Assembly: GCA_016840165.1 (NCBI GenBank)
Contig: JAEOSU010000087.1
Location: 1 to 31,851, forward strand
DNA length: 31,851 nucleotides
DNA from: Promethearchaeota archaeon
Lineage (GTDB): Archaea; Asgardarchaeota; Lokiarchaeia; Sigyniarchaeales; SOKP01
Reading direction: 5' to 3'
Below the pieces are notes generated by a model. The model was not told where the DNA came from, did not search any database, and saw only the letters and a list, made by a program, of their open reading frames with translations. A program made the position numbers and the translations under genes. This document shows positions 11,748-30,969 of the stretch, piece after piece (positions within the stretch are counted from its first letter, which is position 1; each line of letters opens with the position of its first letter).

Positions 11748-12452
11748 ATGTCATCCCGCTCAGAAAAATATCAATTAAGGCAGAGAGATATAGAGGCACT
11801 CTTCAATTTTTTCTCGGGATTACATTTCTATATTCAAAAGGGATATTCTTCCCAAATTTCTCCCTATGATGCAGACTGCGAACTTTATCGAATGAAGCAA
11901 ACATTTGAAGACGTCTTTCCATGGACTTCAAAAGGGGGGCGTTTTAAGTGTACTAATCGCTTATTAAAAACGCCTATTCCAGAGTCGATCATAAAGTCAC
12001 TTTGTGACCTTATATCGGTGATCACCTCTTCAAAATCACCACTTACTATCCAAAAGGAACTGAATTACATAAAGACACTAAATGACCTTATGCAAACTTT
12101 TAAAATACCGGCTTTTGTGGATTTTGTGGCGAAAAAATCGGGCTATTCAAAAAGTACTGTAAAGAATCGACTTCGGATAATTAATGCCATAGAAAAAGGA
12201 ATAATTGAAGCTAAAACTATTCAGCTGTTTAAGTCCGGGGGAATTTTTCGTTCAAATATGCTAACGATACTTTCCCGTCTTTCTCGAGTGAAAGGTAAAC
12301 CTGTAATTAAAAAGGTAAAGAAGCACAATTGTGGCGATTGTGCCGTTGCTGATTTCGCAGCTCTGTGTCCCTATTGCGGGCAATTAATAATCGTATGCCA
12401 TCATCAATTAAAAGGCGAACAAGAGAACGCTTGTCAGGATTTCAGGAAGTGA
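11748..12452 (+). CDS. Putative DNA-binding protein with ParB/KorB-like HTH and C-terminal Cys-rich Zn finger
   Basis: VAKKSGYSKSTVKNRLRII HTH followed by IQLFKSGGI; C-terminus CGDC...CPYC...CHH...C. Confidence 0.7.
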   Translation: MSSRSEKYQLRQRDIEALFNFFSGLHFYIQKGYSSQISPYDADCELYRMKQTFEDVFPWTSKGGRFKCTNRLLKTPIPESIIKSLCDLISVITSSKSPLTIQKELNYIKTLNDLMQTFKIPAFVDFVAKKSGYSKSTVKNRLRIINAIEKGIIEAKTIQLFKSGGIFRSNMLTILSRLSRVKGKPVIKKVKKHNCGDCAVADFAALCPYCGQLIIVCHHQLKGEQENACQDFRK

Positions 12453-12462
12453 GGGGAGAATT

Positions 12463-12738
12463 ATGACAATATACATCAATGCCGACCGGTACCTACTTAA
12501 TAAAATTGATTGGGCTCAGCGGCAGTTAGGGATGCATGTGGAGAGTGTTCCTGACACCATTGATGAAATTTGTAAGCACGCGGTTTCCTATAAAAAACAA
12601 TTTACTTTTCTCCTGTCCTTATTTCTATCTACGATACGGCAAGTTTGCCGAGTTCTCCCAGAAAAGGATGAAATGAAAGGTAATCTGAAGACTCTCTATC
12701 GAGAATTGGAGGGGTATAAGAAGAAAGAAATTAAATAA
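12463..12738 (+). CDS. Small protein, possible ribbon-helix-helix DNA-binding domain
   Basis: GAGGGG SD, 10-nt gap after the previous gene; N-terminal TIYIN strand followed by two helices (LLNKIDWAQRQLG...TIDEICKHAV). Confidence 0.6.
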   Translation: MTIYINADRYLLNKIDWAQRQLGMHVESVPDTIDEICKHAVSYKKQFTFLLSLFLSTIRQVCRVLPEKDEMKGNLKTLYRELEGYKKKEIK

Positions 12739-12776
12739 CAATAGCTAATGAAAAAGACTAAAAGAGGAATAAAAAA

Positions 12777-13052
12777 ATGAAGAGTAATAATGATATTGTC
12801 TGGGTGGAGAGGATGGTACGCTGTTTTGAGCTGCCCCAGAGCAAGATTTTACTATGTATGAGTAATTTAATTCGGGTACTGATGAGTGATCCCTATTATT
12901 CACAGCGCAAATCATTTGTAGAGGAAGCATTGCGGATTATGTGTGCTTTATCCTATGAGCAGCAATTTGTTGCTTCATATCAAAAAAAGGAGCATTCCTT
13001 ACAAGAACGCTATGAGATACGGGCCATATTACAAAAAGAGGTTATGAACTAA
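12777..13052 (+). CDS. Small helical hypothetical protein
   Basis: GAGGA SD, operon spacing with 12463-12738; 91 aa. Confidence 0.65.
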   Translation: MKSNNDIVWVERMVRCFELPQSKILLCMSNLIRVLMSDPYYSQRKSFVEEALRIMCALSYEQQFVASYQKKEHSLQERYEIRAILQKEVMN

Positions 13053-13237
13053 TAGTGGTTTTCACATGGAAAACTGTATGTATTCCAATTTGGAGGGTAG
13101 CTATTATTAGTTTTAAGTAGTATTATTCTCTTCAATCCCGTAATCACTTATATCGAATTTAGTCGGAAATCTTATGAAATCAAGAATTTCTCTTTTAAGC
13201 CCGTCAAATTTAAGTCCAAATTTTTTGTCATTCATGA

Positions 13238-13801
13238 TTAATTGAAATTAAATTCTATTAATTTTGCTTTTATTTTAGTTTGCATTTCCTTTTCTTCAAT
13301 TTCATTCCAGAGATAAGAATTTTGAACAGAAGCGTGAGGAAGAATAACAGTTGGAATTATATATTCTTTTAATATAAAATATCGCCGTCTAAAAAGAAGT
13401 CTATTTCCATTTTTTGAGATTATATCATCATTCTCTGGGTTTGAAAAAGGTCTTAAATAATGTGTAAAATAACTTTCTACTCCCGTCCCTTGAAGAATAA
13501 TTTTAAATTCAGAGTTATATTCTAAAAGAATTTCTAATTCCTTTAAGAAATGGGTTTTCAAACATATTTGGCGTGATTTATGTAAGTTCGCGCTCCGGCA
13601 TTTTGCTATATCAGTTATATAAGATTTCTCTTTTATTTGAGGAAAAAACAATTTTAATCTCTTAAAAAGTAAATGCTCCTTTACTGATTTGGCTTTAAAT
13701 TGATCATACGCAATATGACCACAAGATTCCATCTCGTAGGCCTCGCAAGACGGAAGTCTTTTTGTATAAGTTTTTTTATCCAACGATCTATTAGAGACCA
13801 T
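13238..13801 (-). CDS. Uracil-DNA-glycosylase-superfamily-like protein
   Basis: YITDIAKC, CLKTHFLKELEIL, IILQG and LPHAS correspond to the UDG family 4/5-like motifs; the N-terminal motif A is not evident. Confidence 0.65.
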   Translation of the reverse strand: MVSNRSLDKKTYTKRLPSCEAYEMESCGHIAYDQFKAKSVKEHLLFKRLKLFFPQIKEKSYITDIAKCRSANLHKSRQICLKTHFLKELEILLEYNSEFKIILQGTGVESYFTHYLRPFSNPENDDIISKNGNRLLFRRRYFILKEYIIPTVILPHASVQNSYLWNEIEEKEMQTKIKAKLIEFNFN

Positions 13802-13879
13802 CCTTTTTAAAGGAAAAATCTATCCTTGCTCTTAACTTAATTTTTAAGTATGATTAATTGTCAATCTATATAATTTGTA

Positions 13880-15157
13880 TCAAATATATGCCCTATCAGT
13901 AGGGTTTTGGTAATAATCAATAATTTTTTTTTTAATTGAGTCAATAAATTCATATATTTTTTTATATTCAAAAGAATCTTGAATAATGATATCCTTTTTA
14001 TCACCTAAATACTCTTTATGGCTTAGAAATTCTAAGGATTTAGAAAGTCTTCTTCTTTTTCCATTTAATATCATGTTGGGCACAATTATTTCGAACGAAA
14101 AATTTTCTGTTGGGATCTTTACTAAATTTATTTTACATTTTGGATTAAAGATAAAACAAATTACTTCAAGGAGGGATTCTAATTTTCCCCATGTGATAGT
14201 TGTAAAAGGCGCATTATACTTTTCTTGAAAGCGTCTTACATTTAATATATTATATGTACCATCTTTCAAATAACCTAAAGAAAATTTTGGATCTGCTGGA
14301 TTAGAATAATTGTAATTTAGGCAAAAATATATGAGCCCACTAGGATAAATTAACAAATCCTCACCATTTGTTGGCTCATATTGACGTGTATAATCAGGAA
14401 TCTTAACTGTCTGAGATTCCTTAATTATAGAATAATCATCAATATAGTTCTTTATAATATTAGAATTAAAGTCAATTAAATTATCTGAAAGGGAATAAGG
14501 AACGATGCAGCCAAATATATAATCATATATCAAACCATCTCGACTATTTTTATTAATTGGGAGACTAAGATTTTCTTCGAGTTTATTATTAGCCCAACTC
14601 TGGAATTTTTTATATATATCTTCTAACATTTCTGGGCTCAATTCTTCTTTTATTGAAGGTTTACTTAGTTCTAATTCGAGCAGAGGCTTAAGACAATCTC
14701 TCAGAGTTTCTTTTGTGTATTTTTGGATATGCTTGCTTCCAACATCAAAGGGAAGTCTTTTTAGTTGTTCCTCTTCACAAATTACAATTTGTCTTTTCCC
14801 TAATCCAGCAGCATATCCATACTCCCAATAAACATTTAGACTTGGACAATAATCTTCGACTCCATGTTCTTCACAATATGTTTTTAATGGTGCTGATATA
14901 TCGTTTATAATCAATCGAGACCCTCTTACATTTGAGCAAATATTTTCGCAAAAAGCGTCTAGATTATTGTTCTCATCGAGTCTTTCAGCAAATATAGGTT
15001 CCAAATTATATTCTCGAACAAGATTTATAATGATATCTATATATTCTTTCCTACTTGAATCGCAAGATCCTATAATAAACACTTTGTCCTGATCCTCAAA
15101 GAGATCTTTATTACAAGATCTTACCTTAGACCAATAACAAGGTAGATTTTTTGCCAT
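13880..15157 (-). CDS. Nucleoside 2-deoxyribosyltransferase-like (TIR-like) effector domain fused to an unnamed C-terminal domain
   Basis: FIIG...ICSNVRGSRLIINDIS...NVYWEYGYAAGLGK...LPFDV signature with the conserved Glu; C-terminal ~250 aa aligns by eye with the 27112-28329 product. Confidence 0.8.
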   Translation of the reverse strand: MAKNLPCYWSKVRSCNKDLFEDQDKVFIIGSCDSSRKEYIDIIINLVREYNLEPIFAERLDENNNLDAFCENICSNVRGSRLIINDISAPLKTYCEEHGVEDYCPSLNVYWEYGYAAGLGKRQIVICEEEQLKRLPFDVGSKHIQKYTKETLRDCLKPLLELELSKPSIKEELSPEMLEDIYKKFQSWANNKLEENLSLPINKNSRDGLIYDYIFGCIVPYSLSDNLIDFNSNIIKNYIDDYSIIKESQTVKIPDYTRQYEPTNGEDLLIYPSGLIYFCLNYNYSNPADPKFSLGYLKDGTYNILNVRRFQEKYNAPFTTITWGKLESLLEVICFIFNPKCKINLVKIPTENFSFEIIVPNMILNGKRRRLSKSLEFLSHKEYLGDKKDIIIQDSFEYKKIYEFIDSIKKKIIDYYQNPTDRAYI

Positions 15158-15242
15158 TTTTTAATCCTCAAAGGTATATTTAAAATTCATTTTCTTTAAT
15201 ATTTGTTCTATTCTAAATTATTTTTCAAAAGTAATTCTTTTA

Positions 15243-15279
15243 GTCTCCTTCTGCCCATCTGGAAAATGGGTAAGGAGAC
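15243..15279. repeat. GC-rich 14-bp stem-loop with 2-nt bulge
   Basis: GTCTCCT-TC-TGCCCAT-ctggaaa-ATGGGTA-AGGAGAC in an otherwise very AT-rich intergenic region. Confidence 0.6.
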
Positions 15280-15694
15280 ATATTGCTAAAAAATTTTTTT
15301 TAACAATAAAATATATACAGTTCAAAATATTTAAGTCTATTGGTTAATATCATTAAAAATCTTATCGATATTGAGAGTCCGGATTATGGAATCCGAGAAA
15401 ACCTATCTTCCACTGATTAAATTGAACTGGATTTTAACGGGGTGAAATTTAATAGCTTAGCAGACTAAATATAATAGTAAATTTATATTGAGAGCAAACG
15501 GATAAGTCGGTTTAAAAATTGCGCAAAAATCTAATACATTCAAATTAAATGTATAACCCCTAAATTAGATAAAATTGACCACATGATTAAATAATCAGTT
15601 TAGTCACTAATTCTATTTACTCTAAAAAATAAACAAAAGAAAAATATATTGCACCAGTTTTAACGGTAAAATCTGACCCTTGAAATATTCTAGT

Positions 15695-15750
15695 GTTTTT
15701 GTTATTAGCAAAAACGGAAGAATCTTATTAAGATGTAATAAATTACATCT
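15695..15750 (-). terminator. Two tandem inverted repeats immediately downstream of the M50 peptidase gene
   Basis: AGATGTAAT-AA-ATTACATCT (15731-15750) and GTTTTTG-TTATTAG-CAAAAAC (15695-15715); function inferred from position only. Confidence 0.3.
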
Positions 15751-16594
15751 ATTTTTTTAGGAAAGTTAAATTAGGATAAATTTTATCAAAAAAAGTATTA
15801 CTTAATTTAATAATTTTAGCTGTAAAACCGATGATTATAAAAAATAAAGCAAGGAAGAAGATAAAATTACAGATTAACGATAAGATTGCAGGTGTAGCCC
15901 ATTGAGTGCAAGTTAGAAAGTCCCATGCATCTCCGTTCCGTATAATTATACTATTCCTCCAATAATTTATTTCTTTGAAAATAATATAGCTAGTCAAAAA
16001 ATAATGAGGACTCAATAACTCTATTTTCAAATTCGCATATTTAAAAAGATAAATTAAGAATAAGATTGCGATAATTATAGTTCCTAAACTTCCGGCTACT
16101 ACTATTCTACAATATATAGAGTTTGGGATATTTGAAATAAATCTAGTGTAACCATTCCCGAAGTTCGTAATATTTATTTCAATTAGTTCGACTCCATAAA
16201 AGATGCAGGTTAAAGCATGATTTGCTTCATGAATAAATGTAAAAACATACAAATATGGAAAGTATAATAAAACAGTTGATCCAAGAAGTATCGCAAACTT
16301 GATAATGAAAATATCTTCATACTTCCATACTTTTTTCTGCGTCTCACCTATCTGTATTTTAATATTAGTTCCATACTGGTTCCTGATATTGCTATAATAA
16401 CTAATTTTTAGTGAAATTGTTCTGTTTACAACAAAAGTAATGTACACTATCACTATAAACATAAAAATCACAGTTAGAAACTGTCCAATTGCTACATAAT
16501 AATTCAAAATAAATAAAGTATAAATTAAAGCACATAGTGTGATGCCATACAAAAAGAATTTTAGCTTTATCTGATTGATACTAATGATTGCCAC
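15749..16594 (-). CDS. M50-family (site-2 protease-like/M50B) intramembrane metallopeptidase
   Basis: FIHEANHAL (HExxH), AGSLG and NGDAWD motifs; multiple TM helices. Confidence 0.85.
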   Translation of the reverse strand: MAIISINQIKLKFFLYGITLCALIYTLFILNYYVAIGQFLTVIFMFIVIVYITFVVNRTISLKISYYSNIRNQYGTNIKIQIGETQKKVWKYEDIFIIKFAILLGSTVLLYFPYLYVFTFIHEANHALTCIFYGVELIEINITNFGNGYTRFISNIPNSIYCRIVVAGSLGTIIIAILFLIYLFKYANLKIELLSPHYFLTSYIIFKEINYWRNSIIIRNGDAWDFLTCTQWATPAILSLICNFIFFLALFFIIIGFTAKIIKLSNTFFDKIYPNLTFLKK

Positions 16595-17019
16595 CTATCT
16601 TCTTTCCTGATTTTTGAACTATATATATTTAATAGTTTATTTGTATTTAAGTTTTTAGTTTATAGGCAGTGTTTTTAAGATAATAAGACAGATCTAAGAT
16701 AATATATTACTTATTATGTTGAACTCTTAAGATATAAGGTTATTTTAATGAGTATTCTTAATGCTTAGAGTTGACTTCCTTAACATTACTTTAATATGGA
16801 GAACCAAGATAATTGCTTCCAACCGCGGTTAAGAGTTCCCGAAGTCCCGATCATCTCATCATGGATCCATTATTTCAAGAGTTCATGCATCTGAATCTCA
16901 TCATTAGTGACTTTTACGGTGCGATACAAAGGGTCTTTTCGATTGGAGCTATAATCCAAAAAATACACCCATATTTGGGATATAATCCCGTTTCTTCACT
17001 AATGTACCCCTTGATCTAA

Positions 17020-18549
17020 TTAGAAAAAGAGATTTAAAATAGTAAGAGAGTGTTTTCCAATTATTTTTCCGACTTCAGCTAGATATTTTCGCCTTTTTAT
17101 TTCTTTCTTTTTATATTGCTGATGAAACAACTTTAATTTCTGATAATCGCTTCCCAATTTTTCTTCTAGTTGTAATCTTAGTTGATCTAATTTTGCATTT
17201 ACATCATTATCATGTTTCTCTAATAAATCGAAAATTTTTCTAAGTAAATCAGGTTCATATTCATAGAATATAGATTCTCCCTCGTGCCTGAATTTTTCTT
17301 CGGATACTATTTTTTTCTTAACTAAATATCTGGTTTTTTTAAACTCGTTTTCTATCAAGTCAATAAGGTCTTGTTCATTCTGGCTACCTATAATATATAT
17401 CTCATTTACCTTATTGAAAGCAATACAACATACCAAAGATTCTGTAACGATTAGATTGGTTATAATACTTTCTATATTTGAGTGATAAAGCAAAATTAGA
17501 ATTGATTTTTCTTCAATAGGGATAGAATATCGATACCAACTAGAAATAATGACATGATATTCAATATTATTAATCACATGATTAAAAATAGAATAAAAAT
17601 CTGTAGATTCCTCTAAAAAAGAAAAGTTGGAAAGTCTATCAAAGATTTCATTTACCCATATATAATTTTTGAGAAGATAATTTGCACCCTTCAAAACAAA
17701 ATTCCATAATTGTTCTTTTAGATTTGGATTATATATGTTTCTCCCAATTATGTTGGGATGAGACAATAAACTTGAAGTGTCGTTTGATACGATAATTTTA
17801 AATGGCTCTTCGATATGTTCATAACCAGATAACAATAAATCTACACCAACATACTCGCTAAAATTATCTCTATTTTTAGTATAATCAAATCTCTTGAGAA
17901 AACTCTTATAACTCTTCTTAAATGAGGGAAATTTAATATGTGAAAGAGAAGGATTCTCTAGATTTTTGATAATATTGTTAGGGAAATTAATTACATCAAA
18001 ATATAATCCTAAATCATTTCCTTTAGATGAAATCCATTCTGTTTCCAGAGCTATCCCTGTTCGCATTAATATTTGTTGAATACTAGTTTCAGATAGTTCC
18101 CCAAAAATTAATTTATATAACCGGCCAAATTTATCACTATCAAATAAATAAATTGGTGTTCCATAAAATTGTTCGAGGTATAAACTTAAATTATTTATAT
18201 TTTTGTCTGACAATTTTCTAATGTTGTTACCTAAAAATTGCTGTATTTCCTTATGATATTTTGCCATCAACCTTTCAGAAATTCTTTTATATGCCAAAGT
18301 TTCAAATAGATCCTCATTTAATAGATCGAAAATATTTATGAAATTAGTCCAAATATCTTCAAATTCAGTATGATTCATATTGAACAAGATCTCCATGTTC
18401 CTCCTTACATCAAGCTTAAGATTATTCATTGTATAATGATTTTTTCTGTAAGCAATTATTCCAGTCTGCCGAAATTCTGAAAAAAAGACTAAATATAGAT
18501 ATTTAGGATCAGCTGGGATTAGTTCAATGAATTTGCGTGATATGTCCAT
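17020..18549 (-). CDS. Hypothetical protein, 509 aa, with coiled/amphipathic C-terminal tail
   Basis: Long ORF with normal composition; no motif recognised; co-oriented 151 bp downstream of the TIR-SMC gene. Confidence 0.8.
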   Translation of the reverse strand: MDISRKFIELIPADPKYLYLVFFSEFRQTGIIAYRKNHYTMNNLKLDVRRNMEILFNMNHTEFEDIWTNFINIFDLLNEDLFETLAYKRISERLMAKYHKEIQQFLGNNIRKLSDKNINNLSLYLEQFYGTPIYLFDSDKFGRLYKLIFGELSETSIQQILMRTGIALETEWISSKGNDLGLYFDVINFPNNIIKNLENPSLSHIKFPSFKKSYKSFLKRFDYTKNRDNFSEYVGVDLLLSGYEHIEEPFKIIVSNDTSSLLSHPNIIGRNIYNPNLKEQLWNFVLKGANYLLKNYIWVNEIFDRLSNFSFLEESTDFYSIFNHVINNIEYHVIISSWYRYSIPIEEKSILILLYHSNIESIITNLIVTESLVCCIAFNKVNEIYIIGSQNEQDLIDLIENEFKKTRYLVKKKIVSEEKFRHEGESIFYEYEPDLLRKIFDLLEKHDNDVNAKLDQLRLQLEEKLGSDYQKLKLFHQQYKKKEIKRRKYLAEVGKIIGKHSLTILNLFF

Positions 18550-18700
18550 TTAAAATCTTCTTTGGATTTTTAATGTCTTTAGATTTAAAATAATAATCAT
18601 GATATTTAAATATAATATTCGGGAAAAGAAATTCTTATCAATATCTCCAATCTCTTTTTAGTCTATGGCTATTATTCCGGAAATTATCCAATCCACCGAT

Positions 18701-20263
18701 TTATATTCTTCTAGGACCCCTTAATACTAACCCACATTGAGAGCATACTGATTCATATCCTCCTGTGTTTATAGTTAGTATAAAACCGCCACACTCTGGA
18801 CATGTTGGTTCGGTTAATATATCTATTGGATATATGTTTGTAATTCCATTATTTCCCTTTCTCGTTCTAAATACCATATTTGAGGAAAGTATCATCTCTT
18901 CTCGATGACCGACAATTATTACTTGCGATGTACGAGATATTTTTTTCAACAATTTACTAACTATAGCTACATGTAAAGAATCTAAATTCTCATCTATATT
19001 ATCAAAAAGATAAAAAGAAAGAGGAAAACATAATATCGAGGCGAAATATAATAATAGAAAAACATAACTTTTTTCGCTCCCACTTAAATAGTCAAATTCA
19101 ATAAATTCTCCTTCACTCATTTTTACCTTTATAAGTAAATTAGCAATAGAGAGGTTTTCAGGATTTTCTACAGATATATCTATTGAATTTATTGTTTCGT
19201 CTTCATCGCATAATCTTTGTAGCTCTCCGATAAATTTGGGTAACACTATTTTCAAAAAATTGGGATTCCATGTATTTTCTATTTTATTCCAAGATTTTAA
19301 TAGTTGTCCAATAATCTTTAATCTCTCCTGGGGGGAGCGGGATATAAATTCATTTTCATCATTATCCACAAGAATAAATCTTTTAGATGTGTCTTTATTG
19401 ATGGTTGTTAATTCTATTACTTTCTTATAATCAACTAAAGATGTTGGAATTCCATTTACTAATTCCATATTTTCCTGATTATTTTTTATTATTCTATGTA
19501 AATAGAAAAATGGATAATACGGGAATTTTTCTTTGTTATTATCGAACTTTACTATTACTTCTGCTTGCGGGACGACATTAGAATCTGTACTTATGTAAAG
19601 TAGATTTTTATAATTAGTGAAATATTTTTCATTTCTATAATCTAATACCATTAATACCGCTTTAATGATATTGGATTTTCCAGATCCTAATGGGCCAATA
19701 ATTAAGTTAAGATTTGGGGACAGGTTTAAGTTTATTTTATTAGGGCCAAATGAGGCAAATCCTGAAAATATAATTTCTTTTATGTAATAATCATATTCTT
19801 GTTTAATGTTTGGCTTAAGTGATCTTAGGTCACCAATTTTCTGGACATTGTCTAGTTCTGTGTCTACGGACTTATATTTCCTCATTATTAGTTGAAATAA
19901 ATCATAGCTAAACTGTTTAATATCATTCTCTTTAAATTTTATCCCAAGTTTAGTAGTTAATAAAGTAGGAATAGAGTTCTCATTAATAAAAACAGGAATT
20001 ATTTTCTTTTGCAGTTTTAAAGCAGCCATCCATTCCATCCTAACCGGTCTTGATTCATCTGCATTTTCAGAACAAAATAGAATTAAAATATCGCATTTCC
20101 TTAAATTTTCATTCATATATTCATAGATATCATCATACATATCACGTTCCCAATATAATACATCTCCAATCTGCGAGAAATCACCCAATAAGCCGCAGAT
20201 CATTGGAATTTGAAATAATTGAGAATCTTTTGTAGAATAGCTTATATATACTACTATACTCAA
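18701..20263 (-). CDS. TIR domain - SMC-head-like ABC ATPase (no long coiled coil) - TFIIB-type Zn ribbon fusion
   Basis: TIR: VYISYSTKD, CDILILFCS, VRMEWMAAL, IIPVF. ABC: GFASF, GPLGSGKSN, LSGSEKS, FYLFDNIDENLD, IIVGHREEM. Zn ribbon: CPECGG...ESVCSQCGLVL. Confidence 0.9.
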   Translation of the reverse strand: MSIVVYISYSTKDSQLFQIPMICGLLGDFSQIGDVLYWERDMYDDIYEYMNENLRKCDILILFCSENADESRPVRMEWMAALKLQKKIIPVFINENSIPTLLTTKLGIKFKENDIKQFSYDLFQLIMRKYKSVDTELDNVQKIGDLRSLKPNIKQEYDYYIKEIIFSGFASFGPNKINLNLSPNLNLIIGPLGSGKSNIIKAVLMVLDYRNEKYFTNYKNLLYISTDSNVVPQAEVIVKFDNNKEKFPYYPFFYLHRIIKNNQENMELVNGIPTSLVDYKKVIELTTINKDTSKRFILVDNDENEFISRSPQERLKIIGQLLKSWNKIENTWNPNFLKIVLPKFIGELQRLCDEDETINSIDISVENPENLSIANLLIKVKMSEGEFIEFDYLSGSEKSYVFLLLYFASILCFPLSFYLFDNIDENLDSLHVAIVSKLLKKISRTSQVIIVGHREEMILSSNMVFRTRKGNNGITNIYPIDILTEPTCPECGGFILTINTGGYESVCSQCGLVLRGPRRI

Positions 20264-20600
20264 TTTTATAAAACCCCTAATGAATGATAGATTCCTTGTG
20301 TTTATTATTTATAACATTTTTATAAAAATTTAAATACTTAAATTTTAGCGTTCCCATAACCATTCGTATCTATCCTTTCCTTTAGCTCCAAATAATATTG
20401 GTTTTTTCCATATTAGGAACGATTATTGAAATTATATTTGGATAAAAAAACTATAATACTAAAAATGCAGGTTTAAAATAGTATAAATTCACTATAATTT
20501 AAGCATTAATTAATTCAAAGATCTTGATATAGTAGCCAAGATTAAGAAGTATGAAAAGGTTAACAATAAATTCTTAACATAATTGTATTATTAATTATTT

Positions 20601-20816
20601 ATGGAAATAAAAATTAAAGAAATTTTAATTAAATTTAAGACTGAAATCTTGGCTGTTATTTTTCTAGGGATATTAATGTTAGTGATTGCTGCATATATAC
20701 CAGATGAGTATGTTAAAAGTGTTTTAATATCTCTTGGTACCTTTCTTATAATGTCTCCCGCTTTGCTAATTTTATTATTTTATGCTATGAATCAAATATT
20801 AAAGTTGAGTAGATAA
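20601..20816 (+). CDS. Small two-TM membrane protein
   Basis: 71 aa with two hydrophobic helices. Confidence 0.6.
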   Translation: MEIKIKEILIKFKTEILAVIFLGILMLVIAAYIPDEYVKSVLISLGTFLIMSPALLILLFYAMNQILKLSR

Positions 20817-20894
20817 ATGACGGCTTAAGATTGGATTTTACTACTAACTATAGTTTTTTTTTGAGTTGTAACTGTATCATTAATAATTACAATT

Positions 20895-21740
20895 CTATTT
20901 GCTGGATAAAATTAATAATTTTAGAGGATTTCTCCAACGAATAGATTTCGAGAAGCTTAAATGAACCTCATTGAGTATGTGATACTCTTCCGGTAGTTTT
21001 TTTAATTCTTTAATAGCTCTTGTCTCTCCCACTGCCCCACTCATGTATTGCGGATTTTTTTTAAGTACGATATTAGCTGTATGTAAATCCTTGACCGATT
21101 TTTGGACGGATTTTTCTAAGTTCTTTTCGCGCGATTTGACTTCTTTATCGGTTTTTTTCACTTGTTTAAGTTCTTTTTTGAAGGGTTTATCTAGTTTCTT
21201 CTCCAAAATCTTATCAATTTTTTTCACTCGTTTTTCATCTTTAGAGCTCATTTCCCCCTCTTCAAGCTGCTTTTTTTCTTCAAGAAGGGCTTCTTTAAAT
21301 AATACTTTCTTCTCCTCGATCTTTTGGACAAGCTTCTCCTCATCTGTTTTTAATGCTTCAATAATCGCAGTCAGCTTATCACGTTCTTCTTGGGTGCTGG
21401 TAGCTAAGATCGTTTTAAAATTCTTTTTAAAGGTTTGGATCTCTTCAAAGGTTTCGAATCCATTAATCCCTTTATGAAGAAGTTCTCTCTTAATATGCAT
21501 AACACTTCCTGAGCGACCAATGATATTCTCATTGGAAGGTTTCAGAATTAAGTGGTTTTTTTCCACAAACCATCGAGCAATATCAAATTGTTGGGTGCTG
21601 TTTGAAGCTGATTGAAAATCTGAAGTAAAGACTGATTTAGGAACCCACGATTCCCTTCCATTAGTAAACGAAATTAATACTGCTTTTTCGGTCTCCTTGA
21701 TGATTTGCCCTTGGAGTGTCGATATGGGTTTGGGGGGCAT
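20895..21740 (-). pseudogene. C-terminally truncated NERD nuclease-domain protein
   Basis: N-terminal ETEKAVLI...WVPKS beta domain and long coiled coil, then the NERD start GAVGETRAIKELKKLPEEYHILNEVHL. The ORF ends before the QIDH...IETK catalytic motifs. Confidence 0.65.
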
Positions 21741-21920
21741 TTTTTCTGGTGATCGTTATCTTTTGATCTTTTGATTGATTGAGAATCGATTTAAAATCGA
21801 TTAAATAATTAATTAATTAGTTAGTAGATCTTTCTCTTAATAACTCTTTTTAGTTTCAAGAGTAAATTTAATAAGATTGAAACAACCTATTTTTTATTAT
21901 AAAATATGGGTGAGATAAAG

Positions 21921-22391
21921 ATGAAAAGAAATATTTTATTGGGAGCTATTTTACTATTGTTGCTTTTTCTATTTCCTGCGATCAATGTCCAAGCCGCCGA
22001 AAAGACCGAATATTTATCCAATGGTCAATGGACTCAGATTAACTTAACACTTCCCCAGGGTTTTAATCTTAATTGGGAATTTGAGACATACAACAACTCC
22101 TTTCCAGCATTAGTGAGGATAGATGACCCTGATGGTTATTACGAAAATTTAATCACTGCCGAAAGTGGGAGTGGGGTGTACATTGCAGAGAAACAAGGAG
22201 CCTACATTATTACTCTCTTGAATGCTGGGTCAGTTGGCGGTTACATTCGTTTTACGTACAATGAACCCCTCCCTGTTATTTCAGGGTATCTGCCGCTATT
22301 AATGTGTGGCTATATTATTTTTTATCTATTATTTGGATGTATTGGAATATTGTTTGCAATCAAGAAAAAAACAAACATAGTTATATTATAA
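21921..22391 (+). CDS. Secreted GOLD-like beta-sandwich protein with Loki-CTERM-like membrane anchor
   Basis: GGTGA SD before ATG 21921; signal peptide MKRNILLGAILLLLLFLFPAINVQA; GAYIITLLN strand; ISGY + TM + KKK tail. Confidence 0.75.
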   Translation: MKRNILLGAILLLLLFLFPAINVQAAEKTEYLSNGQWTQINLTLPQGFNLNWEFETYNNSFPALVRIDDPDGYYENLITAESGSGVYIAEKQGAYIITLLNAGSVGGYIRFTYNEPLPVISGYLPLLMCGYIIFYLLFGCIGILFAIKKKTNIVIL

Positions 22392-22435
22392 AATAGTTAA
22401 ATCACTTCGTTAGAATGTTAAAATAAATATTTTAG

Positions 22436-24244
22436 GTGATTTCCATAATAAGGACAAGAGCACATGAGCTTGAAACTCTATCTAAAGCTTTTTTATTACG
22501 TTTCTTTTTTAAATGGATTTGTAATGAATATAATCCTGATTATGGACTTGATTATAAGATAACAATTGTAAGGAATGGAGAAGAAACTAAGGATTTCTTT
22601 TTTGTACAGCTTAAAGCAACGGATCATATTGATATTAAGGAAGAGGAAATTAACTTTGTATTAGATGTGAAACATATACTTTTTTTTAAAGAAATGCCAA
22701 TTCCTATTTTGCTAATTTTATATGATGTACAAAATGATTGTGGTTATTGGTTAAATATTCAGAGATATTACAAAGATGTATTAATCCATGAGGAAGAGGA
22801 TTGGAGTAAGCAAAAGACAAAAACACTAAAAATTCCATTAGATAATAAGTTAGTAGACCTAAAAGATATTGAAGAAATGATAATAATCTCATCTAAAGAA
22901 TTGTATCGAAGTATAACGTTTGGATATGAATGGTTTGAAGGTTATGAGAAATTAATTGAGAGTCCTGAAGAGTTAGATAAAATTATAGCAAAGTACGAGT
23001 CAGATTTTATCGAATCAAATGTCTATGCTTCTTTAGTGAATTTTAGAGCAGGAAATATGGAAAAAACTCGGGAGAATTTACTGAGTGTATACAATCAAAA
23101 AAAAGAAGATATAAGGCATCTACAAATTATCCTATCAATAACTTTATTTGATCTACCAATAATAGCAATTAATCCCTCTGAATTTACGAGACTTCTCCGT
23201 GAGGGTCTTGGACTAGCAATTAGATTAGAAGAAAAATTATTTGAAACCATGTTTAGATTTTATATTATTTATTCGAAACTTTTCGAATTATTATTAGCAA
23301 AAATGCCATTAACCCTGCAAAAAATATATATTGCCGAAGGAAAGAGTGTTGTTGATCCTTTTGTTCAACTTATCTGGGATAGTGAAGACTTATACTTAAC
23401 GGGGTTACTAAAGAATATATATGATACAATCTCTCAAATATTAAAAGAGACCATTGAAAATGGGAATATAATAGAATATATTGAGATGCAATTATGTGTA
23501 ATTTTCTTAGATAACTTTGTATCCAATCTAATTAGAAGTAGTACTAAAAAAGTAATAGAAAAAGATCAAAAGCAAGTAGATTTTATAAATCAACTTTTAG
23601 AATTAATTGAAAAAATTAATAACATTGATCTTTCACTTCAAGCATATCTAATAATTGGAAATTTTTTCGAACAAATCGATTTAGAAAATTGTTTATCCTT
23701 ATATAATAGAGGATTAGAGCTAGCTAAACAACAGGAGCATAGATATTATTTAGATAAATTTAATGAAAATATTAGAGAAGCAGGTAGAGCTATAGAAATT
23801 CCTACTCTAGAAGAACAGAGAGAAGAAATACGAAATTTACCATTGAAGTCATTTATTGAACTTCAAGAAATGAAATATAAGGGATTAGATTCATTAGAAG
23901 ATGAAAAGTTGAAGAAACTCTTGAAATTTGCTCAAAAACAAATGTATGTGTTAGATATTTTAAAATATTGCGAATATTTGAACATTTGTTATTTTCCATC
24001 TGTCTATGGACAAACTTATGGCATTTTCTCATTAGGAGTTAAAGAGATCGCATGTTTGGCTAAGGAGAAAATCTATAGCTCTGCAGATCTTATGAGTACA
24101 ATAGAACAATTTAAAAATAATTTTTGTGAAAAATGTGATTTACGAAAAGCTCGGGAAGAAAATTTTGATCCTCCAACTAAAATTTTAGATGAAATGTGCG
24201 AAAATATAGCTAAAATGAAAAGGAAAAATTCACCTAAAGTATAA
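22436..24244 (+). CDS. DUF4365 (PD-(D/E)XK) nuclease domain fused to helical/TPR-like region and Cys-rich C-terminus
   Basis: PDYGLDYKI, FFVQLKAT, PILLILYD...YWLNIQ DUF4365 signature; QAYLIIGNFFE...YNRGLELA TPR-like segment; C-terminal C..C..C..CEKC. Confidence 0.85.
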   Translation: MISIIRTRAHELETLSKAFLLRFFFKWICNEYNPDYGLDYKITIVRNGEETKDFFFVQLKATDHIDIKEEEINFVLDVKHILFFKEMPIPILLILYDVQNDCGYWLNIQRYYKDVLIHEEEDWSKQKTKTLKIPLDNKLVDLKDIEEMIIISSKELYRSITFGYEWFEGYEKLIESPEELDKIIAKYESDFIESNVYASLVNFRAGNMEKTRENLLSVYNQKKEDIRHLQIILSITLFDLPIIAINPSEFTRLLREGLGLAIRLEEKLFETMFRFYIIYSKLFELLLAKMPLTLQKIYIAEGKSVVDPFVQLIWDSEDLYLTGLLKNIYDTISQILKETIENGNIIEYIEMQLCVIFLDNFVSNLIRSSTKKVIEKDQKQVDFINQLLELIEKINNIDLSLQAYLIIGNFFEQIDLENCLSLYNRGLELAKQQEHRYYLDKFNENIREAGRAIEIPTLEEQREEIRNLPLKSFIELQEMKYKGLDSLEDEKLKKLLKFAQKQMYVLDILKYCEYLNICYFPSVYGQTYGIFSLGVKEIACLAKEKIYSSADLMSTIEQFKNNFCEKCDLRKAREENFDPPTKILDEMCENIAKMKRKNSPKV

Positions 24245-24829
24245 TGTTTCTTTTAATTTTAAAGAAAAAGTATGGAAACAAGTATAAATCGCTATTTGAG
24301 ATTCATGAACTTAGTCGGCCTATTTTGGGCTTCTCTTGGTAGTATTTAAGATCAAACCAAACGCTGGTATTATGGGTAAGAGTTATGAAACCTTGTTTTA
24401 AAGGAGAAATTTTTCCCCTTACCAAAAATTACTTAGATATCGAACCGCAGAGATTTATAAACTCATAGGTGAATTCATATTCTATCCCAATTAGACAAAA
24501 TGCGTGATGACCCATCTATTTTACTCCTAACTCTATTGCTTATACCATAGTTCACGCCGATTGTCGGGAGCCCATCTCTTTCTCGAACCTCTTCTTAATA
24601 GCATTTGTGCCATCTCCTTCTTGGAAGTAAGCTCCGTTCTTACTTCCTACTTCTAATCTCTTTATTAGAGATAAAGCCATACTAGAATAAAAGCGTGAAG
24701 CATGAATCCGATATAGTTCAGGAGGTTCGCAAGGCACATCCCTAAAAAGACCCATAGACCAATCCCAGCTAAATCTAACTTATCCATAGTTGTAAATTAC
24801 TACTTATTGTTTAAAAAGAAAAAAAAAAC

Positions 24830-24974
24830 TGATTCCTGTCAAGGCGACCTATCGGGGTGGAGGTCATAAAAAATGGTTAAAAAAAGGGGCGTAGATTGGT
24901 AGAGGAGGACCAATCACTTATACAAAACAAGCCAAATATGGAAAGGATTTCAATTATGAAGATGACAGGAATCA
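24830..24974 (-). ncRNA. Structured fold-back element A (candidate ncRNA or ssDNA recombination site)
   Basis: 12-bp perfect terminal inverted repeat TGATTCCTGTCA/TGACAGGAATCA; internal hairpins GACCT/AGGTC (24846-24865) and GATTGGT/ACCAATC (24894-24915); followed on the minus strand by a long T tract (24813-24828). Confidence 0.55.
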
Positions 24975-25114
24975 TTACTCTTATAATATTGTGGATCTAT
25001 TTAGACAAAAAACAAAAGACAAAAAAAATATTAATTAAATTATGTTATTCTTTATTAAGGGCTTACGCTACTACTTTTTTAAGAGATCAATTATCTGGTA
25101 AAATGGTGTTTATT

Positions 25115-26095
25115 ATGGAAGAGAAGCATATGAAAGAGAAGCACATATGCATTTACACTTATCAATTTTTATTAAATGTTCAAAGTATTTTGAAGAATAT
25201 CGAGATTGTATTGGTTTATTCCAGAAAAGGATTCGAAAAATATGAAGATACATTTAATTCGTTTGTAAAATGTATTGAAGAAGGAAATTTGGATTCTTAT
25301 ATGAAGAATATAAAAGCGCGTAAAGAAGGTATAAAAGCTAGTGATTTGGAATTAAGTGAGATCGAACGATTGATCGCAGATCCTGATAAGGGTTTTCATG
25401 CAAAAGAAATGTTAAGAGATATGGAAAATTTAATTGAGATTTTTAAAGATATCAACTATGCAAAATTAAAAGAGTTCTTGTTTAGGAGTAATATAATTTA
25501 TCTTTTCACAGAATTCGAAAATTTTCTATTTAAATGTATGAAATTTATTTTGTTGAAGTATTCTGAGATAATGGATCAGAAGTCAATACGATTAAAAGAA
25601 ATTAGGTTAATGCACGATAGTAGAAATCTTAAATTAATAGAGGAAATAATTGCAGAAAATACTATTCAAGATTTACTTTACAAAAATTATATCGACATCT
25701 TTAATTATTTTAAAGACCCGCTTGGAATAGAATTACAATTTAGCCAAGAGTCTATAGACAAGCTGAATATCTTTAAAGAAATTCGAAACTTTCTTACTCA
25801 TGGAGATGGAATTATAAATTTATTATTCCTAAAGAGAATTTCAAATTGGAATTTTGATAAATATGATTTAAAGCTTACCAATTTAAAAATTGGTGAAAAA
25901 CTAATTGTAGGCCAGCAAACAATATTTAATCTATTTAGGTTATTAAATAGTTTTATTATTGAAATAGATAGAGTGATGGATAAAAAGTTTCCTGAATTAA
26001 GATTTGAAATCGAAAGTGCAGCCCATTTATTCCATCAGGCATATTTAGACCTTATAATTAGTAAATGGAAAAATGTTCTTGAAAAATTAGAATAA
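25115..26095 (+). CDS. HEPN-domain putative RNase
   Basis: IIYLFTEFENFL and IRNFLTHGDG (RxxxxH). The likely start is ATG 25115 behind a GGTG SD rather than the track's TTG 24896, which lies inside element A. Confidence 0.8.
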   Translation: MEEKHMKEKHICIYTYQFLLNVQSILKNIEIVLVYSRKGFEKYEDTFNSFVKCIEEGNLDSYMKNIKARKEGIKASDLELSEIERLIADPDKGFHAKEMLRDMENLIEIFKDINYAKLKEFLFRSNIIYLFTEFENFLFKCMKFILLKYSEIMDQKSIRLKEIRLMHDSRNLKLIEEIIAENTIQDLLYKNYIDIFNYFKDPLGIELQFSQESIDKLNIFKEIRNFLTHGDGIINLLFLKRISNWNFDKYDLKLTNLKIGEKLIVGQQTIFNLFRLLNSFIIEIDRVMDKKFPELRFEIESAAHLFHQAYLDLIISKWKNVLEKLE

Positions 26096-26209
26096 AGTTA
26101 TTGAACATAAATTAGACTCTTTTTCTTCCTTAATTTCTAGATTGGATGAATTATTTCGTAGTAATATGTAATAATCCATAAATTAAATAGAAAGACTTAT
26201 AGTATAGGA

Positions 26210-26332
26210 GATTCCTGCCACCAAGACCTCAATACAAGGTCCGCAATAAAATAGGGGGAGTAGGGCGAAATCAGGACTCTGAGCCGATCAGAGCCACCAA
26301 AAGACAAAAATCCAGGGCGGCAGCAGGAATCA
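26210..26332 (-). ncRNA. Structured fold-back element B, same architecture as element A
   Basis: GATTCCTGC/GCAGGAATC terminal stem (13 bp with two G-U pairs on the minus strand); hairpins GACCT/AGGTC (26225-26241) and CTCTGA/TCAGAG (26277-26293). Confidence 0.55.
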
Positions 26333-26575
26333 TGGTTGATGGTATCCCTATTTTATTTTGAATTATGGGGTTAAGAAGTACAATTTTTTTGTCTTAGGTA
26401 GTCTAATAGCCACTTACCCTAATAAATCTTTTGGCGATACAAGTTCATCAGTAGGAATGTAGAAATTGAAAAACTTAAAAAGAGTATATTAATATTATCA
26501 ACGTAAAAATCCTTTAATTTAAGATTTAAAAGTCTCAATCATATTAAATCAATTTATAAGAGTGAGGCGAGAAGA

Positions 26576-26866
26576 GTGGGAGAGAGTTTGTGGGGAAAAT
26601 TTGGGTTAATGTTAGCTATTATAGGTCTTATGTTTGTCGTTATCAACTTTTTTATGGTAGTACTCAGTAGTTTTTTACCAGATATGGCAAACATGCTCAT
26701 TATTACAGGATTTATCGCATCAATCGGTGCAATTATACTGGGAATTGTAGGTATCATAAGCGATGATTTAAGGGAAAATGCGATTCGAGCAGTAATAGCA
26801 GGAATTATCTTTTTTATTGTTCATATTCTAATACTTGTTGTTCGCGAGTATTTCATAAATCTTTAG
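26576..26866 (+). CDS. Small three-TM membrane protein
   Basis: GAGG SD + GTG; three hydrophobic helices, IILGIVGI motif. Confidence 0.75.
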   Translation: MGESLWGKFGLMLAIIGLMFVVINFFMVVLSSFLPDMANMLIITGFIASIGAIILGIVGIISDDLRENAIRAVIAGIIFFIVHILILVVREYFINL

Positions 26867-27111
26867 CTATATGAACACATTTTTTTATTTTTTGTTTAAT
26901 CAATATTAAAAAAAGTACTCAACGTGGATCATAGAATTTGTAAAAAAAATTTATTAATATGTATTTCTGTATCTAGCAAAAGTAAAAATCCGATAACCAT
27001 GCAAGAAAAATTAAAATGGAACGCAATTGGCTTAGCCAGAAGAACACGATTACTTAGTAGTTCTTACATTAATTTAAGGAATATTTATTTTTAAGAAGGT
27101 TGAGAATTAGA

Positions 27112-28329
27112 ATGTCATTAAACCAAGATGAGAAGGATTATATTTCAAAGATATTCAATCATGGAGTAGCACATCTTTCTGATGATGCTATCCCTAATCG
27201 CATAATCTGTGTCCATAATATCCATTGGTGTATAGAAAATTTACTTCGTAAGGCGTCTCAAGAATGGACAAATATTGATTATAGGGCAGGATTTGAAGAT
27301 ATATTAAATATTTTTGACAGTAGGCATAACATTCCTATAGACTTAAAAAATGAAATGCGAAGGTTAAATACAATTAGAAATGATATGGAGCATAGATCTT
27401 TATTCCATGATATTAGAGACATCTTAAATTTAATACCTAAGGCAAGAGAGTTTATTTCTTGGATAGCTAAAATAAAATTTAATACCATCATTGATTTGTA
27501 TTCAGTTTCAGCAGCGGACGAATCAAATATTATAACCGATTTTAATAATTGGAAAAGAATGAAGATAGAACAATTCGATATCAATAATTTTGAGAATTTG
27601 ATTTTTATTCTTATAATCCCAACTACTTATTCTCCCAATATCATCGAAATGCATATTGATGGAATTAATGAAATGGTAGGATCAACCCTTGAATCAGGTG
27701 TTAGGATTTCTGGCAGAAATCCTGAGCATGAATCCGCAATTGAAAAATATTTTCGAAGTTTTAGACATATATTTAGCCATCCTTCTCAAGTTTTTTCAAT
27801 CCCTACATATATGCGTTATTATAATGAAATTGGAGATGAATTACGAGTATTTCCCGATGGTAGGATTTATATAGCGTTTAAATTTGGAATGACAGTTAGG
27901 GATGAGTTGGGATTTAATATAGAGAATTTATATTCTGGTAGGGAGGTATTTAATATTAATTCACAGTATATAACCTATTATAATCTACCTTTTAATGAAT
28001 ATAGACCAAATATGCTTGAGTATATATTAAAGCTTGTGCTTTACAGTTTTCACCCGGACAATATTCATTCTGGTGTTAAAGCTCTTACAAAATTTCATCG
28101 AATTTTTATTACTTTGCCTTTCATGAGAAGAAATGGAGAGCCATGCAAATTAGATCGCCATTTAGATGATGACCATTGGTTTGAATCTCCACGAATTTAT
28201 TGTGGAGAGGAAGAGGAGTTAACTTTCAAAAGATCAATTAATTTTGATGAGATTCAGGGCGTTTTAGAAGAGTTTAAAAATTGGACATATTCATTTTTCC
28301 GAAATCCTCATGATACTGGATTTATGTGA
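27112..28329 (+). CDS. N-terminal HEPN-like domain fused to the same unnamed C-terminal domain as 13880-15157
   Basis: HWCIENLLRK and LNTIRNDMEH (RxxxxH); C-terminal homology seen by manual alignment. Start is ATG 27112 or TTG 27100. Confidence 0.8.
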   Translation: MSLNQDEKDYISKIFNHGVAHLSDDAIPNRIICVHNIHWCIENLLRKASQEWTNIDYRAGFEDILNIFDSRHNIPIDLKNEMRRLNTIRNDMEHRSLFHDIRDILNLIPKAREFISWIAKIKFNTIIDLYSVSAADESNIITDFNNWKRMKIEQFDINNFENLIFILIIPTTYSPNIIEMHIDGINEMVGSTLESGVRISGRNPEHESAIEKYFRSFRHIFSHPSQVFSIPTYMRYYNEIGDELRVFPDGRIYIAFKFGMTVRDELGFNIENLYSGREVFNINSQYITYYNLPFNEYRPNMLEYILKLVLYSFHPDNIHSGVKALTKFHRIFITLPFMRRNGEPCKLDRHLDDDHWFESPRIYCGEEEELTFKRSINFDEIQGVLEEFKNWTYSFFRNPHDTGFM

Positions 28330-28443
28330 GGACTTGATTGTAGACTTAAATATATGGATATTAATCTGAATTATTTCGGACTCTTTTTAAATAACAATAT
28401 AAAAAATGTGTCCTTGTTAATAAAAAGAGTGTGAGATCATAAA

Positions 28444-30300: not shown

Positions 30301-30437
30301 TATTTCTTAATTATAAAAAAAATCAAAAAAAGTGAAGTGGGCAATTTTTTATATAGCACTCCGACTTAATTTTTTATATCCAGTATTAGACAAAAATTAA
30401 TTGTAAAATTTACATTCCATATCAGGGTGATAAAAGC

Positions 30438-30856
30438 ATGGGAAAACAACTCAAGCTGACCGATATTGGAAAGCAGAGTCCAGAAGGGAGGGCAAAGTCT
30501 CCTTCTAAAGAACAAAGGATTAAAGAACTTCAGAAAGAAGTGGAATATCATCAGCATCTCTATTATAATTCTCAGTCCGAGATAAGTGATGCCGAGTTTG
30601 ATAAGCTATGGGATGAGTTAAGACGCCTTGATCCCAATAATGAGGTGCTTTCACGGGTAGGGGCAGATTTCGATCCCAGTTTGGAAAAGATTCCTCATAT
30701 TATTCGATGAATTCGCAAGATAAAGTAACTTCGCCCCAAGAGTTTTATAAATGGGCAAAAAAGCGTAATTATTCTAAATTTCTCGTGCAATATAAATTAG
30801 ATGGAATCAGCATTGAGTTACAATTTATTAAAGCGAAGTTTCAATACGGGGTAACA
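30438..30856 (+). pseudogene. ligA: NAD-dependent DNA ligase, frameshifted and truncated 5' fragment
   Basis: YHQHLYY...ISDAEFDKLWDELRRL domain Ia; H-x-x-P-M-x-S-x-D-K split by a -1 frameshift at ~30705; motif I YKLDGISIEL; similarity stops at GVT (30856), before the expected RGDG. Confidence 0.9.
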
Positions 30857-30969
30857 CTTCATTTTCCTTTTTTGACTTTGATAGATAATAATTCTATTTT
30901 TGTATTATTGATTAAAATAATAAAACTTAATAGATTTAGACAATTTAAGAAATTGAGTGGAAAAGAAAG

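Follow-up and report, generated by a model that had tools for sequence, protein, structure and literature searches.

The window analysed in this study is a whole stretch of 31,851 nucleotides from a Promethearchaeota archaeon, and the gene of interest is the minus-strand open reading frame (ORF) at positions 18701-20263, which encodes a protein of 520 amino acids. In this protein, a TIR domain is fused to an SMC-derived ATPase head that lacks the coiled-coil arm and the hinge, and a TFB-like zinc ribbon forms the C-terminus. Our tentative interpretation, to which we would give slightly less than an even chance, is that the protein is a standalone conflict sensor-effector in which ATP-dependent dimerisation of the heads pairs the TIR domains. 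The gene starts with TTG and ends with a TAA stop codon at 18701-18703, and the same 520-residue product was predicted in an independent Logan assembly. Other gene callers choose Met21 as the start, which would remove the first strand of the TIR domain.

An earlier note on this DNA, made from the letters alone, had proposed the TIR, SMC head and ribbon architecture, and both the Pfam matches and the positions of the motifs bear it out; every motif was found where it had been placed, including PQERLKII at residues 311-318 and CPEC...CSQC at 488-510. All features of the gene lie on the minus strand. The TIR domain (residues 1-130, 19874-20263) was identified by Pfam TIR_2 at residues 5-113 (E value 2e-11, 44.9 bits against a 28-bit cut-off) and by its resemblance to Asgard TIR modules. 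It is followed by a linker that is predicted to be disordered (residues 131-158, 19790-19873), with a predicted local distance difference test score (pLDDT) below 50 in both structural models and a length that differs among the homologues. Pfam SMC_N matches residues 160-475 with an E value of 6.5e-37 and covers model positions 1-219 of 220, and the best NCBIfam match, the archaeal-type SMC family TIGR02169 (102 bits), spans both lobes. The best PADLOC match of the protein is mad3 (E value 7e-32), which covers residues 372-475. The ribbon (residues 487-514, 18722-18805) was matched by Zn_Ribbon_TF with an E value of 6.5e-5 and a score of 22.8 bits, which is below the 29-bit cut-off.

The family to which this protein belongs is small, rare and patchily distributed. 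When 5.8 billion clustered proteins and 1.84 billion representatives were searched, only two relatives with the same TIR and armless-head architecture were obtained, both on metagenome contigs. One of these (P0004) is 498 residues long and 39% identical to the window protein, and the other is a single homologue that a frameshift in a tract of ten T (T10) has split into two entries (P0028 and P0172). The proposed combination of TIR, SMC_N and ribbon was recovered in part, as the TIR-head fusion is present in both homologues and the ribbon in neither. Scans of metagenomes, genomes and viral contigs with the head alignment returned no further members, all matches being either to ordinary SMC proteins or generic ones to the N-lobe, and a word-index search limited to the head region did not recover even P0004. 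No orthologue was found in 60 related genomes, 36 of them of the same genus, where the long SMC was the only counterpart. A TIR-SMC fusion is not described in two Asgard defensome papers, in which SMC and Lamassu are unmentioned and TIR appears only in system names or a reference title.

The head-only SMC_N architecture as such is not unique to the window gene. An ESM-Atlas cluster of 326-residue head-only proteins from Thermodesulfobacteriota aligned to the window model with a template modelling (TM) score of 0.87. In addition, a genome of the same order (G041) encodes a 340-residue head-only SMC_N protein without a TIR domain (L024:1462-2481, contig C22). The Walker B motif of this head reads D-A, its Q-loop Gln is kept, its H-loop carries Asn, and 36 of the 48 columns conserved in SMC proteins (defined below) are retained. 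The gene lies on a GC-rich contig directly downstream of a 115-residue ORF.

The SMC-type fold of the head was supported by several comparisons. Using phmmer, residues 160-468 aligned from one end to the other with 4i99_A, a head construct engineered from P. furiosus SMC; in this alignment Asp300 falls at the Gln of the Q-loop and Asn422 at the Glu of Walker B. An AlphaFold2 (AF2) model of residues 136-520, built from a 40-row alignment, reached a pLDDT of 85 and a predicted TM score of 0.83, and its top Foldseek matches were the SMC head constructs 4i99 and 5h68 (TM 0.82-0.84 by target). These comparisons, together with Pfam, define the N-lobe (residues 159-327, 19283-19789) and the C-lobe (residues 355-485, 18809-19201), the latter also being matched by the PADLOC mad3 profile. 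Between the lobes, in the place taken in an SMC protein by the coiled coil and hinge (about 1000 residues), the AF2 model has a helix-loop-helix stub (residues 311-354, 19202-19333) with helices at 311-321 and 336-354. Pfam gave no match to the PF06470 hinge anywhere in the 520 residues, and the stub of P0004 is equally short. The absence of the arm and hinge claimed in the earlier note is thus correct, with the adjustment that the span from PQERLKII to the C-lobe is about 40 residues rather than about 30.

In terms of family membership, the protein has the bipartite ABC head of an SMC protein. Since the long coiled-coil arm, the hinge and the full catalytic set are all missing, it is not an SMC protein; it is an SMC-derived ABC head. 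The SMC of the same genome is, like those of its relatives, unusually long at about 1489 residues, and the head is 27-29% identical to it. In a tree of the head columns, the window protein and P0004 formed a very long-branched clade beside Asgard SMC proteins of about 1480 residues, a placement that is unsure because of the length of the branch.

To compare the ATPase-site motifs, the heads were aligned with 36 SMC proteins, in which 48 columns are at least 90% conserved. The window copy retains 24 of these 48 columns and P0004 retains 26. Both keep the core of Walker A including its Lys, the Asp of Walker B, the Ser-Gly of the signature, the Asp of the D-loop and the Gln that precedes the H-loop, and both have lost the Gln-Gly of the Q-loop, the Arg column that follows Walker A and the second Arg in the ERR motif. 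The lost Arg column, which we take to be the SMC arginine finger, is a gap in the window copy and is Arg in all 36 SMC proteins. Three further losses, at the Asn of Walker A, the second Gly of the signature and the Glu of Walker B, are confined to the window copy. The Walker A sequence GPLGSGKSN (residues 190-198, 19670-19696) has an intact Lys196, with Leu in place of the SMC-invariant Asn; the ABC signature reads LSGSEKS (residues 393-399, 19067-19087), where SMC proteins have LSGGEK; and the Walker B sequence is FYLFDNID (residues 417-424, 18992-19015), in which Asn422 is encoded by AAT at 18998-19000. The H-loop IIVGHR (residues 449-454, 18902-18919) retains His453, and this His is absent from both homologues. 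We do not count its loss as a defect of the family, as several genuine archaeal SMC proteins are also without it.

The Q-loop Gln and the Walker B D-E are present in 36 of 36 SMC proteins, so both deviations of the window copy are real. At the Q-loop position, the window copy has Asp300 (codon 19364-19366, within ILVDND at residues 297-302), which agrees with the earlier statement that the Gln is missing. The P0028/P0172 homologue also has Asp here, and in P0004 the loop FFLNPTK places Asn (three-sequence alignment) or Pro (40-row alignment) at this position, with no Gln either way. The Walker B motif behaves differently, since the window copy reads D-N and both P0004 and P0028/P0172 read D-E. 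The Glu-to-Asn change noted earlier is a true genomic state and not a family trait; its conservation in homologues had been proposed as a check, and the check came out negative. An EQ-like lock is accordingly not the general mechanism of this family, as both homologues keep D-E. As read from these alignments, the trait that the family shares is a set of putative ATP-binding and engagement motifs that are kept and of likely hydrolysis-promoting residues that are lost, with the Glu-to-Asn change as one lineage's extra step.

The sequence of the gene is genuine. It is present in four runs of the probable source study, and contigs from two runs of an independent study (X5 and X6) are letter-identical to the window over 18569-19176, which includes the Asn codon and the junction of head and ribbon. 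The TIR-head fusion occurs at three independent loci, two of which are unrelated metagenome contigs. The identity of the X5 and X6 contigs and the recurrence of the fusion exclude sequencing error and assembly chimerism, and the earlier argument that the Asn codon is unlikely to be an error is upheld. A variant from a third study (X7) covers about half of the gene in three contig pieces that are 94%, 97% and 98% identical to it (93-98% overall). Between this variant and the window gene, 12 codon changes are synonymous (approximately 148 sites) and 11 are non-synonymous (approximately 620 sites), which gives a ratio of non-synonymous to synonymous change per site (pN/pS) of about 0.22 and points to purifying selection on the part compared. 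The two outcomes that the earlier note had named as damaging to its proposal, relaxed selection and a chimeric fusion, were both checked, and neither was seen within this partial cover and at these three loci. No RNA run was listed among the sequencing runs that contain the gene.

The TIR domain belongs to a module that is widespread in Asgard archaea. Many Asgard proteins with WD40, LRR or TPR repeats carry, at one end or the other, a TIR module that is 50-59% identical to that of the window protein, and the named sources of these proteins include Promethearchaeota, Lokiarchaeota and Hodarchaeota metagenome-assembled genomes (MAGs). The genome itself contains at least eight TIR paralogues, with TIR domains that are 31-48% identical. 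The earlier note had stated that the catalytic-position Glu is retained in the sequence VRMEW (residues 74-78), and this Glu77 (codon 20033-20035) is invariant in all 41 aligned TIR homologues, where its context is S-x2-V-x2-E-W. When the TIR domain alone was compared with the PDB using phmmer, no match was obtained. The family profile places Glu77 on the Glu of 9m0n_A and of 5y8e_A, a SEFIR-domain protein, with E values of about 1e-4. For activity, TIR enzymes as a rule require that TIR domains assemble with one another. In a separate metagenome protein of 604 residues (P0029), which is made up entirely of TIR domains, this Asgard-type module is repeated four times in tandem.

The C-terminal ribbon has the sequence CPECGG-x14-CSQCGLVL, which agrees with the pattern CxxC-x(15-17)-CxxC and with the CPECG...CxxCGLV signature. 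It is approximately 50% identical to the ribbons of two TFB paralogues of the same genome (L014 and L015). In the genome scan it scored 27.4 bits, again below the 29-bit cut-off of PF08271. The protein ends six residues beyond the last Cys pair, and the B-reader/linker and the two cyclin folds are absent. The ribbon is missing from P0004 and from P0028/P0172, and it looks like a recent, lineage-specific addition when the three proteins are aligned. The proposed TFIIB-type ribbon is thus upheld in its resemblance to TFB ribbons, and it is qualified by its score and by its restriction to the lineage of the window. In TFB, this type of ribbon contacts RNA polymerase. At least five open frames of 300-340 residues with a ribbon that reaches the Pfam cut-off were found on other contigs of the genome (L012-L016 on C49, C58, C54 and C63); these were taken as TFB paralogues from their size and ribbon, and one of them passes only when neighbouring matches are added.

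The head was modelled as a dimer with ATP, which the earlier note had suggested as a check. The homodimer of the head with ATP and Mg had an ipSAE of 0.43 compared to 0.00 for the best control, and it passed the mark narrowly; in calibration on proteins of solved structure, 20 of 30 pairs of one chain and 1 of 23 single chains reached this mark. The runs agreed in at least 53% of the contacts, and the pLDDT of the partner was at least 83. The predicted interface is the canonical ATP sandwich, in which Walker A faces the signature motif and D-loop of the partner. Because SMC head dimers have already been solved, the result may reflect likeness to them and not the behaviour of this particular copy.

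The genomic neighbourhood of the gene was also analysed. From 12000 to 31851, the window has no DNA counterpart in 41 genomes of the same genus, with three exceptions: a helicase at the end of the window, the TIR paralogy and a short multi-copy repeat. One neighbour (22436-24244, plus strand) encodes 602 residues with an N-terminal DUF4365, which is restriction-endonuclease-like, and has PADLOC matches to PDC-M02A and Aga_REase; other neighbours include genes with weak HEPN-like matches. The stretch fits an accessory, defence-island-like region, although the matches are weak. The downstream neighbour P0002 (17020-18549, minus strand, 509 residues) has no match in Pfam, NCBIfam or PADLOC and no usable Atlas match. 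Its homologues in other metagenome assemblies, one of them named Promethearchaeia, are 51-53% identical over the full length of 508-513 residues, a further homologue of 343 residues is 56% identical over 68% of the query, and on three contigs the homologues follow a gene of 249 residues with no assigned function. P0002 was considered as a partner and rejected, as it is absent beside both TIR-head homologues and its own homologues adjoin other genes. The flanking genes differ among the three TIR-head loci, and since neither these flanks nor P0002 are conserved, the gene appears to act alone.

Two other parts of the window were recorded. The stretches 24399-25012 and 26203-26490 respectively overlap the start of the ORF 24896-26095 and lie a little way downstream of it, and both recur at 90-91% identity, separated by just 27 bp, on another contig of the genome (C5). 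A core of roughly 150 bp within the second stretch (approximately 26207-26359) is present in multiple copies, 73-87% identical, in most genomes of the genus. In appearance they resemble a small repeat or mobile element, and around the ORF the copies differ by an insertion or deletion. At the other end of the window, which is the whole of contig C72, an open frame of more than 3227 residues (3-9683, minus strand) runs off the end of the contig.

The interpretation that we favour is that a TIR effector has been joined to a head that arose from SMC through loss of the arm and hinge. As its binding motifs are kept and its hydrolysis residues are lost, the head is read as a nucleotide-dependent dimerisation switch and not as a motor. 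It would bind ATP and form a head-to-tail sandwich dimer, and with the aids to hydrolysis gone this engaged state may be long-lived. Two engaged heads would bring two TIR domains together, which could lead to NAD+ cleavage or to the synthesis of a signal. The trigger could be DNA or a viral protein, and in the lineage of the window the TFB-like ribbon would add a contact to nucleic acid or RNA polymerase. A role of this kind, in conflict rather than in organising the chromosome, would probably be antiviral or abortive-infection. The earlier proposal of a nucleotide switch that triggers the TIR domain is reasonable in view of the motif pattern and the predicted dimer, with the reservation that the Asn lock is not family-wide.

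Several points weigh against this interpretation. The putative locked state is a feature of the window's lineage and not general to the family, as the Glu-to-Asn change is limited to that lineage. NADase activity is not readable from sequence, and the nearest solved TIR-like chains, at E values of about 1e-4, include a SEFIR protein. The full-length AF2 model, built from a two-row alignment, is poor (pLDDT 44) and does not give the geometry of the TIR domain relative to the head. The family has three members only, one of them frameshifted, and the pN/pS value comes from low-depth contigs that cover about half of the gene, with Walker B outside this cover. Finally, the defence context comes from this one window and from weak PADLOC matches.

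Other explanations of the same architecture were considered. The TIR domain may be an adaptor or scaffold in a TIR-TIR network with the other TIR proteins of the genome, with the head providing regulated dimerisation. The many TIR paralogues of the genome, the four-TIR tandem protein P0029 in the same TIR family and the SEFIR-domain protein among the best solved matches are consistent with this idea, which we nevertheless regard as unlikely, as all 41 homologues carry Glu at the catalytic position, which would not be expected of a pure scaffold. There is a smaller chance that the gene is decaying and functionless, with an ATPase site that erodes after a chance fusion. The window copy deviates at the Asn of Walker A, the Gly of the signature and the Glu of Walker B, which both homologues keep, one homologue is frameshifted and the family is tiny; however, the frame of 520 codons is intact, its stretch 18569-19176 recurs identically in a second study, nothing is missing from the nucleotide-binding core or from the TIR motifs, and the pN/pS of about 0.22 was obtained with roughly four times more non-synonymous than synonymous sites. 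It is similarly improbable that the protein is a housekeeping regulator without an immune role, that is, an SMC paralogue reduced to its head that would cap SMC-ScpAB or compete with it, or one that is coupled to transcription via its ribbon. Head-only SMC_N proteins do exist elsewhere (the 340-residue protein of the related genome and the 326-residue cluster of Thermodesulfobacteriota), and the ribbon is of the polymerase-contacting type. On the other hand, a housekeeping gene would hardly be missing from the 60 relatives searched, 36 of them congeneric, or have so long a branch, and a TIR fusion in a non-conserved neighbourhood is typical of accessory conflict genes.

The head and ribbon could also be baits. 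Plant NLR proteins with integrated decoys (NLR-IDs) follow a guard or decoy logic, and in an integrated-decoy receptor of this kind the head and ribbon would mimic the SMC and TFB of the host, so that viral attackers that bind the baits trip the TIR domain. The head is SMC-like from end to end and does not resemble the generic ABC ATPases of defence systems (TIGR02169, 102 bits), it branches beside the Asgard SMC proteins of 1480 residues, though on a long branch, and the ribbon is about 50% identical to the TFB ribbons of the genome. A bait can also dispense with catalytic residues, which fits their loss. We consider this explanation a long shot, since the mimicry is poor, with 27-29% identity to the genome's own SMC and only half of the SMC-conserved columns kept; the ribbon is absent from two of the three members; and a viral inhibitor of the SMC or TFB of Asgard archaea was not identified in this analysis. 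If the decoy explanation were true, guard or decoy immunity as in plant NLR-IDs would be placed in the archaeal relatives of eukaryotes, and viral anti-SMC or anti-transcription factors would trip the destruction of NAD+.

With regard to the favoured conflict switch, TIR effectors with attached NTPase sensors and SMC-like immune ATPases (Lamassu, Wadjet and MADS) are both known themes, and what is new is the presence of both in one chain. The protein is a natural SMC head without arm or hinge that has apparently been repurposed as a nucleotide-dependent dimerisation switch. The shuffling of Asgard TIR modules onto many scaffolds bears on the origin of modular, eukaryote-like innate-immune architectures. 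In addition, three members with different losses at the hydrolysis site form a small natural experiment on which ABC motifs such a switch would need.

Compared to the P. furiosus SMC head (4i99), the window protein has both lobes, the fold, Walker A, the Walker B Asp, the signature and the D-loop in common. It has neither arm nor hinge, it has lost the Gln of the Q-loop, the Glu of Walker B and the arginine-finger column, and it carries a TIR domain and a zinc ribbon in addition. In effect, it is a natural version of the SMC head constructs that crystallographers have engineered. The head-only SMC_N proteins mentioned above (L024 and the 326-residue cluster) have an armless head of the same size, which in L024 is also substituted at Walker B, and they are without the TIR domain and ribbon.

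In Lamassu (LmuA-LmuB-LmuC), an SMC/Rad50-like abortive-infection system, the SMC-like ATPase LmuB works with various effectors, TIR among them, and has a natural Glu-to-Gln substitution at Walker B that impairs hydrolysis (PMC10586767). The window protein is similar in its combination of a putative SMC-like ATPase sensor with an effector of a kind that also occurs in Lamassu. Lamassu is, however, a multi-gene system in which LmuB has short coiled coils with a zinc hook and the effector acts in trans, whereas the window protein is one polypeptide without an arm or hook. Membership in Lamassu was rejected, as LmuB is not among the 25 best PADLOC matches, the arm and hook are missing and the neighbours have no Lmu matches; a true LmuB from a related MAG matches the window protein only in the Q-loop helix. 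A Promethearchaeia MAG encodes a 796-residue LmuB-like ATPase (L117:78-2465) with a CPLC zinc hook, Walker B D-D, a C-terminal Cys cluster and no Q-loop Gln, and its gene is 3.5 kb from a homologue of P0002.

MAD3, PtuA, GajA, AriA and AbiLi, which serve defence, resemble the window protein in being compact, arm-poor SMC/Rad50-like ABC ATPases, and the closest structural neighbours of MAD3 are SMC and Rad50 (PMC13662399). Such MAD3-type ATPases have separate Toprim or HNH nuclease partners, and MADS is an eight-gene operon, in contrast to the fused TIR domain in the window, which has no such neighbours. The mad3 profile matches, and membership in MADS was rejected as no mad1-mad8 operon with the Toprim partner MAD4 is present; the only other MADS match in the window is a weak, generic helicase match to mad8 in the truncated ORF 30970-31851.

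In TIR-STAND and NLR-like proteins, SPARTA and Thoeris ThsB, TIR activity depends on the induced oligomerisation of a sensor module that is attached or a partner. The window protein likewise joins a TIR effector to a putative sensor, and the same Asgard TIR module is found on WD40, LRR and TPR sensors. The known TIR-NTPase sensors use the higher oligomers of STAND or Argonaute modules, whereas the putative switch in the window protein is an ABC-type head that is predicted to dimerise.

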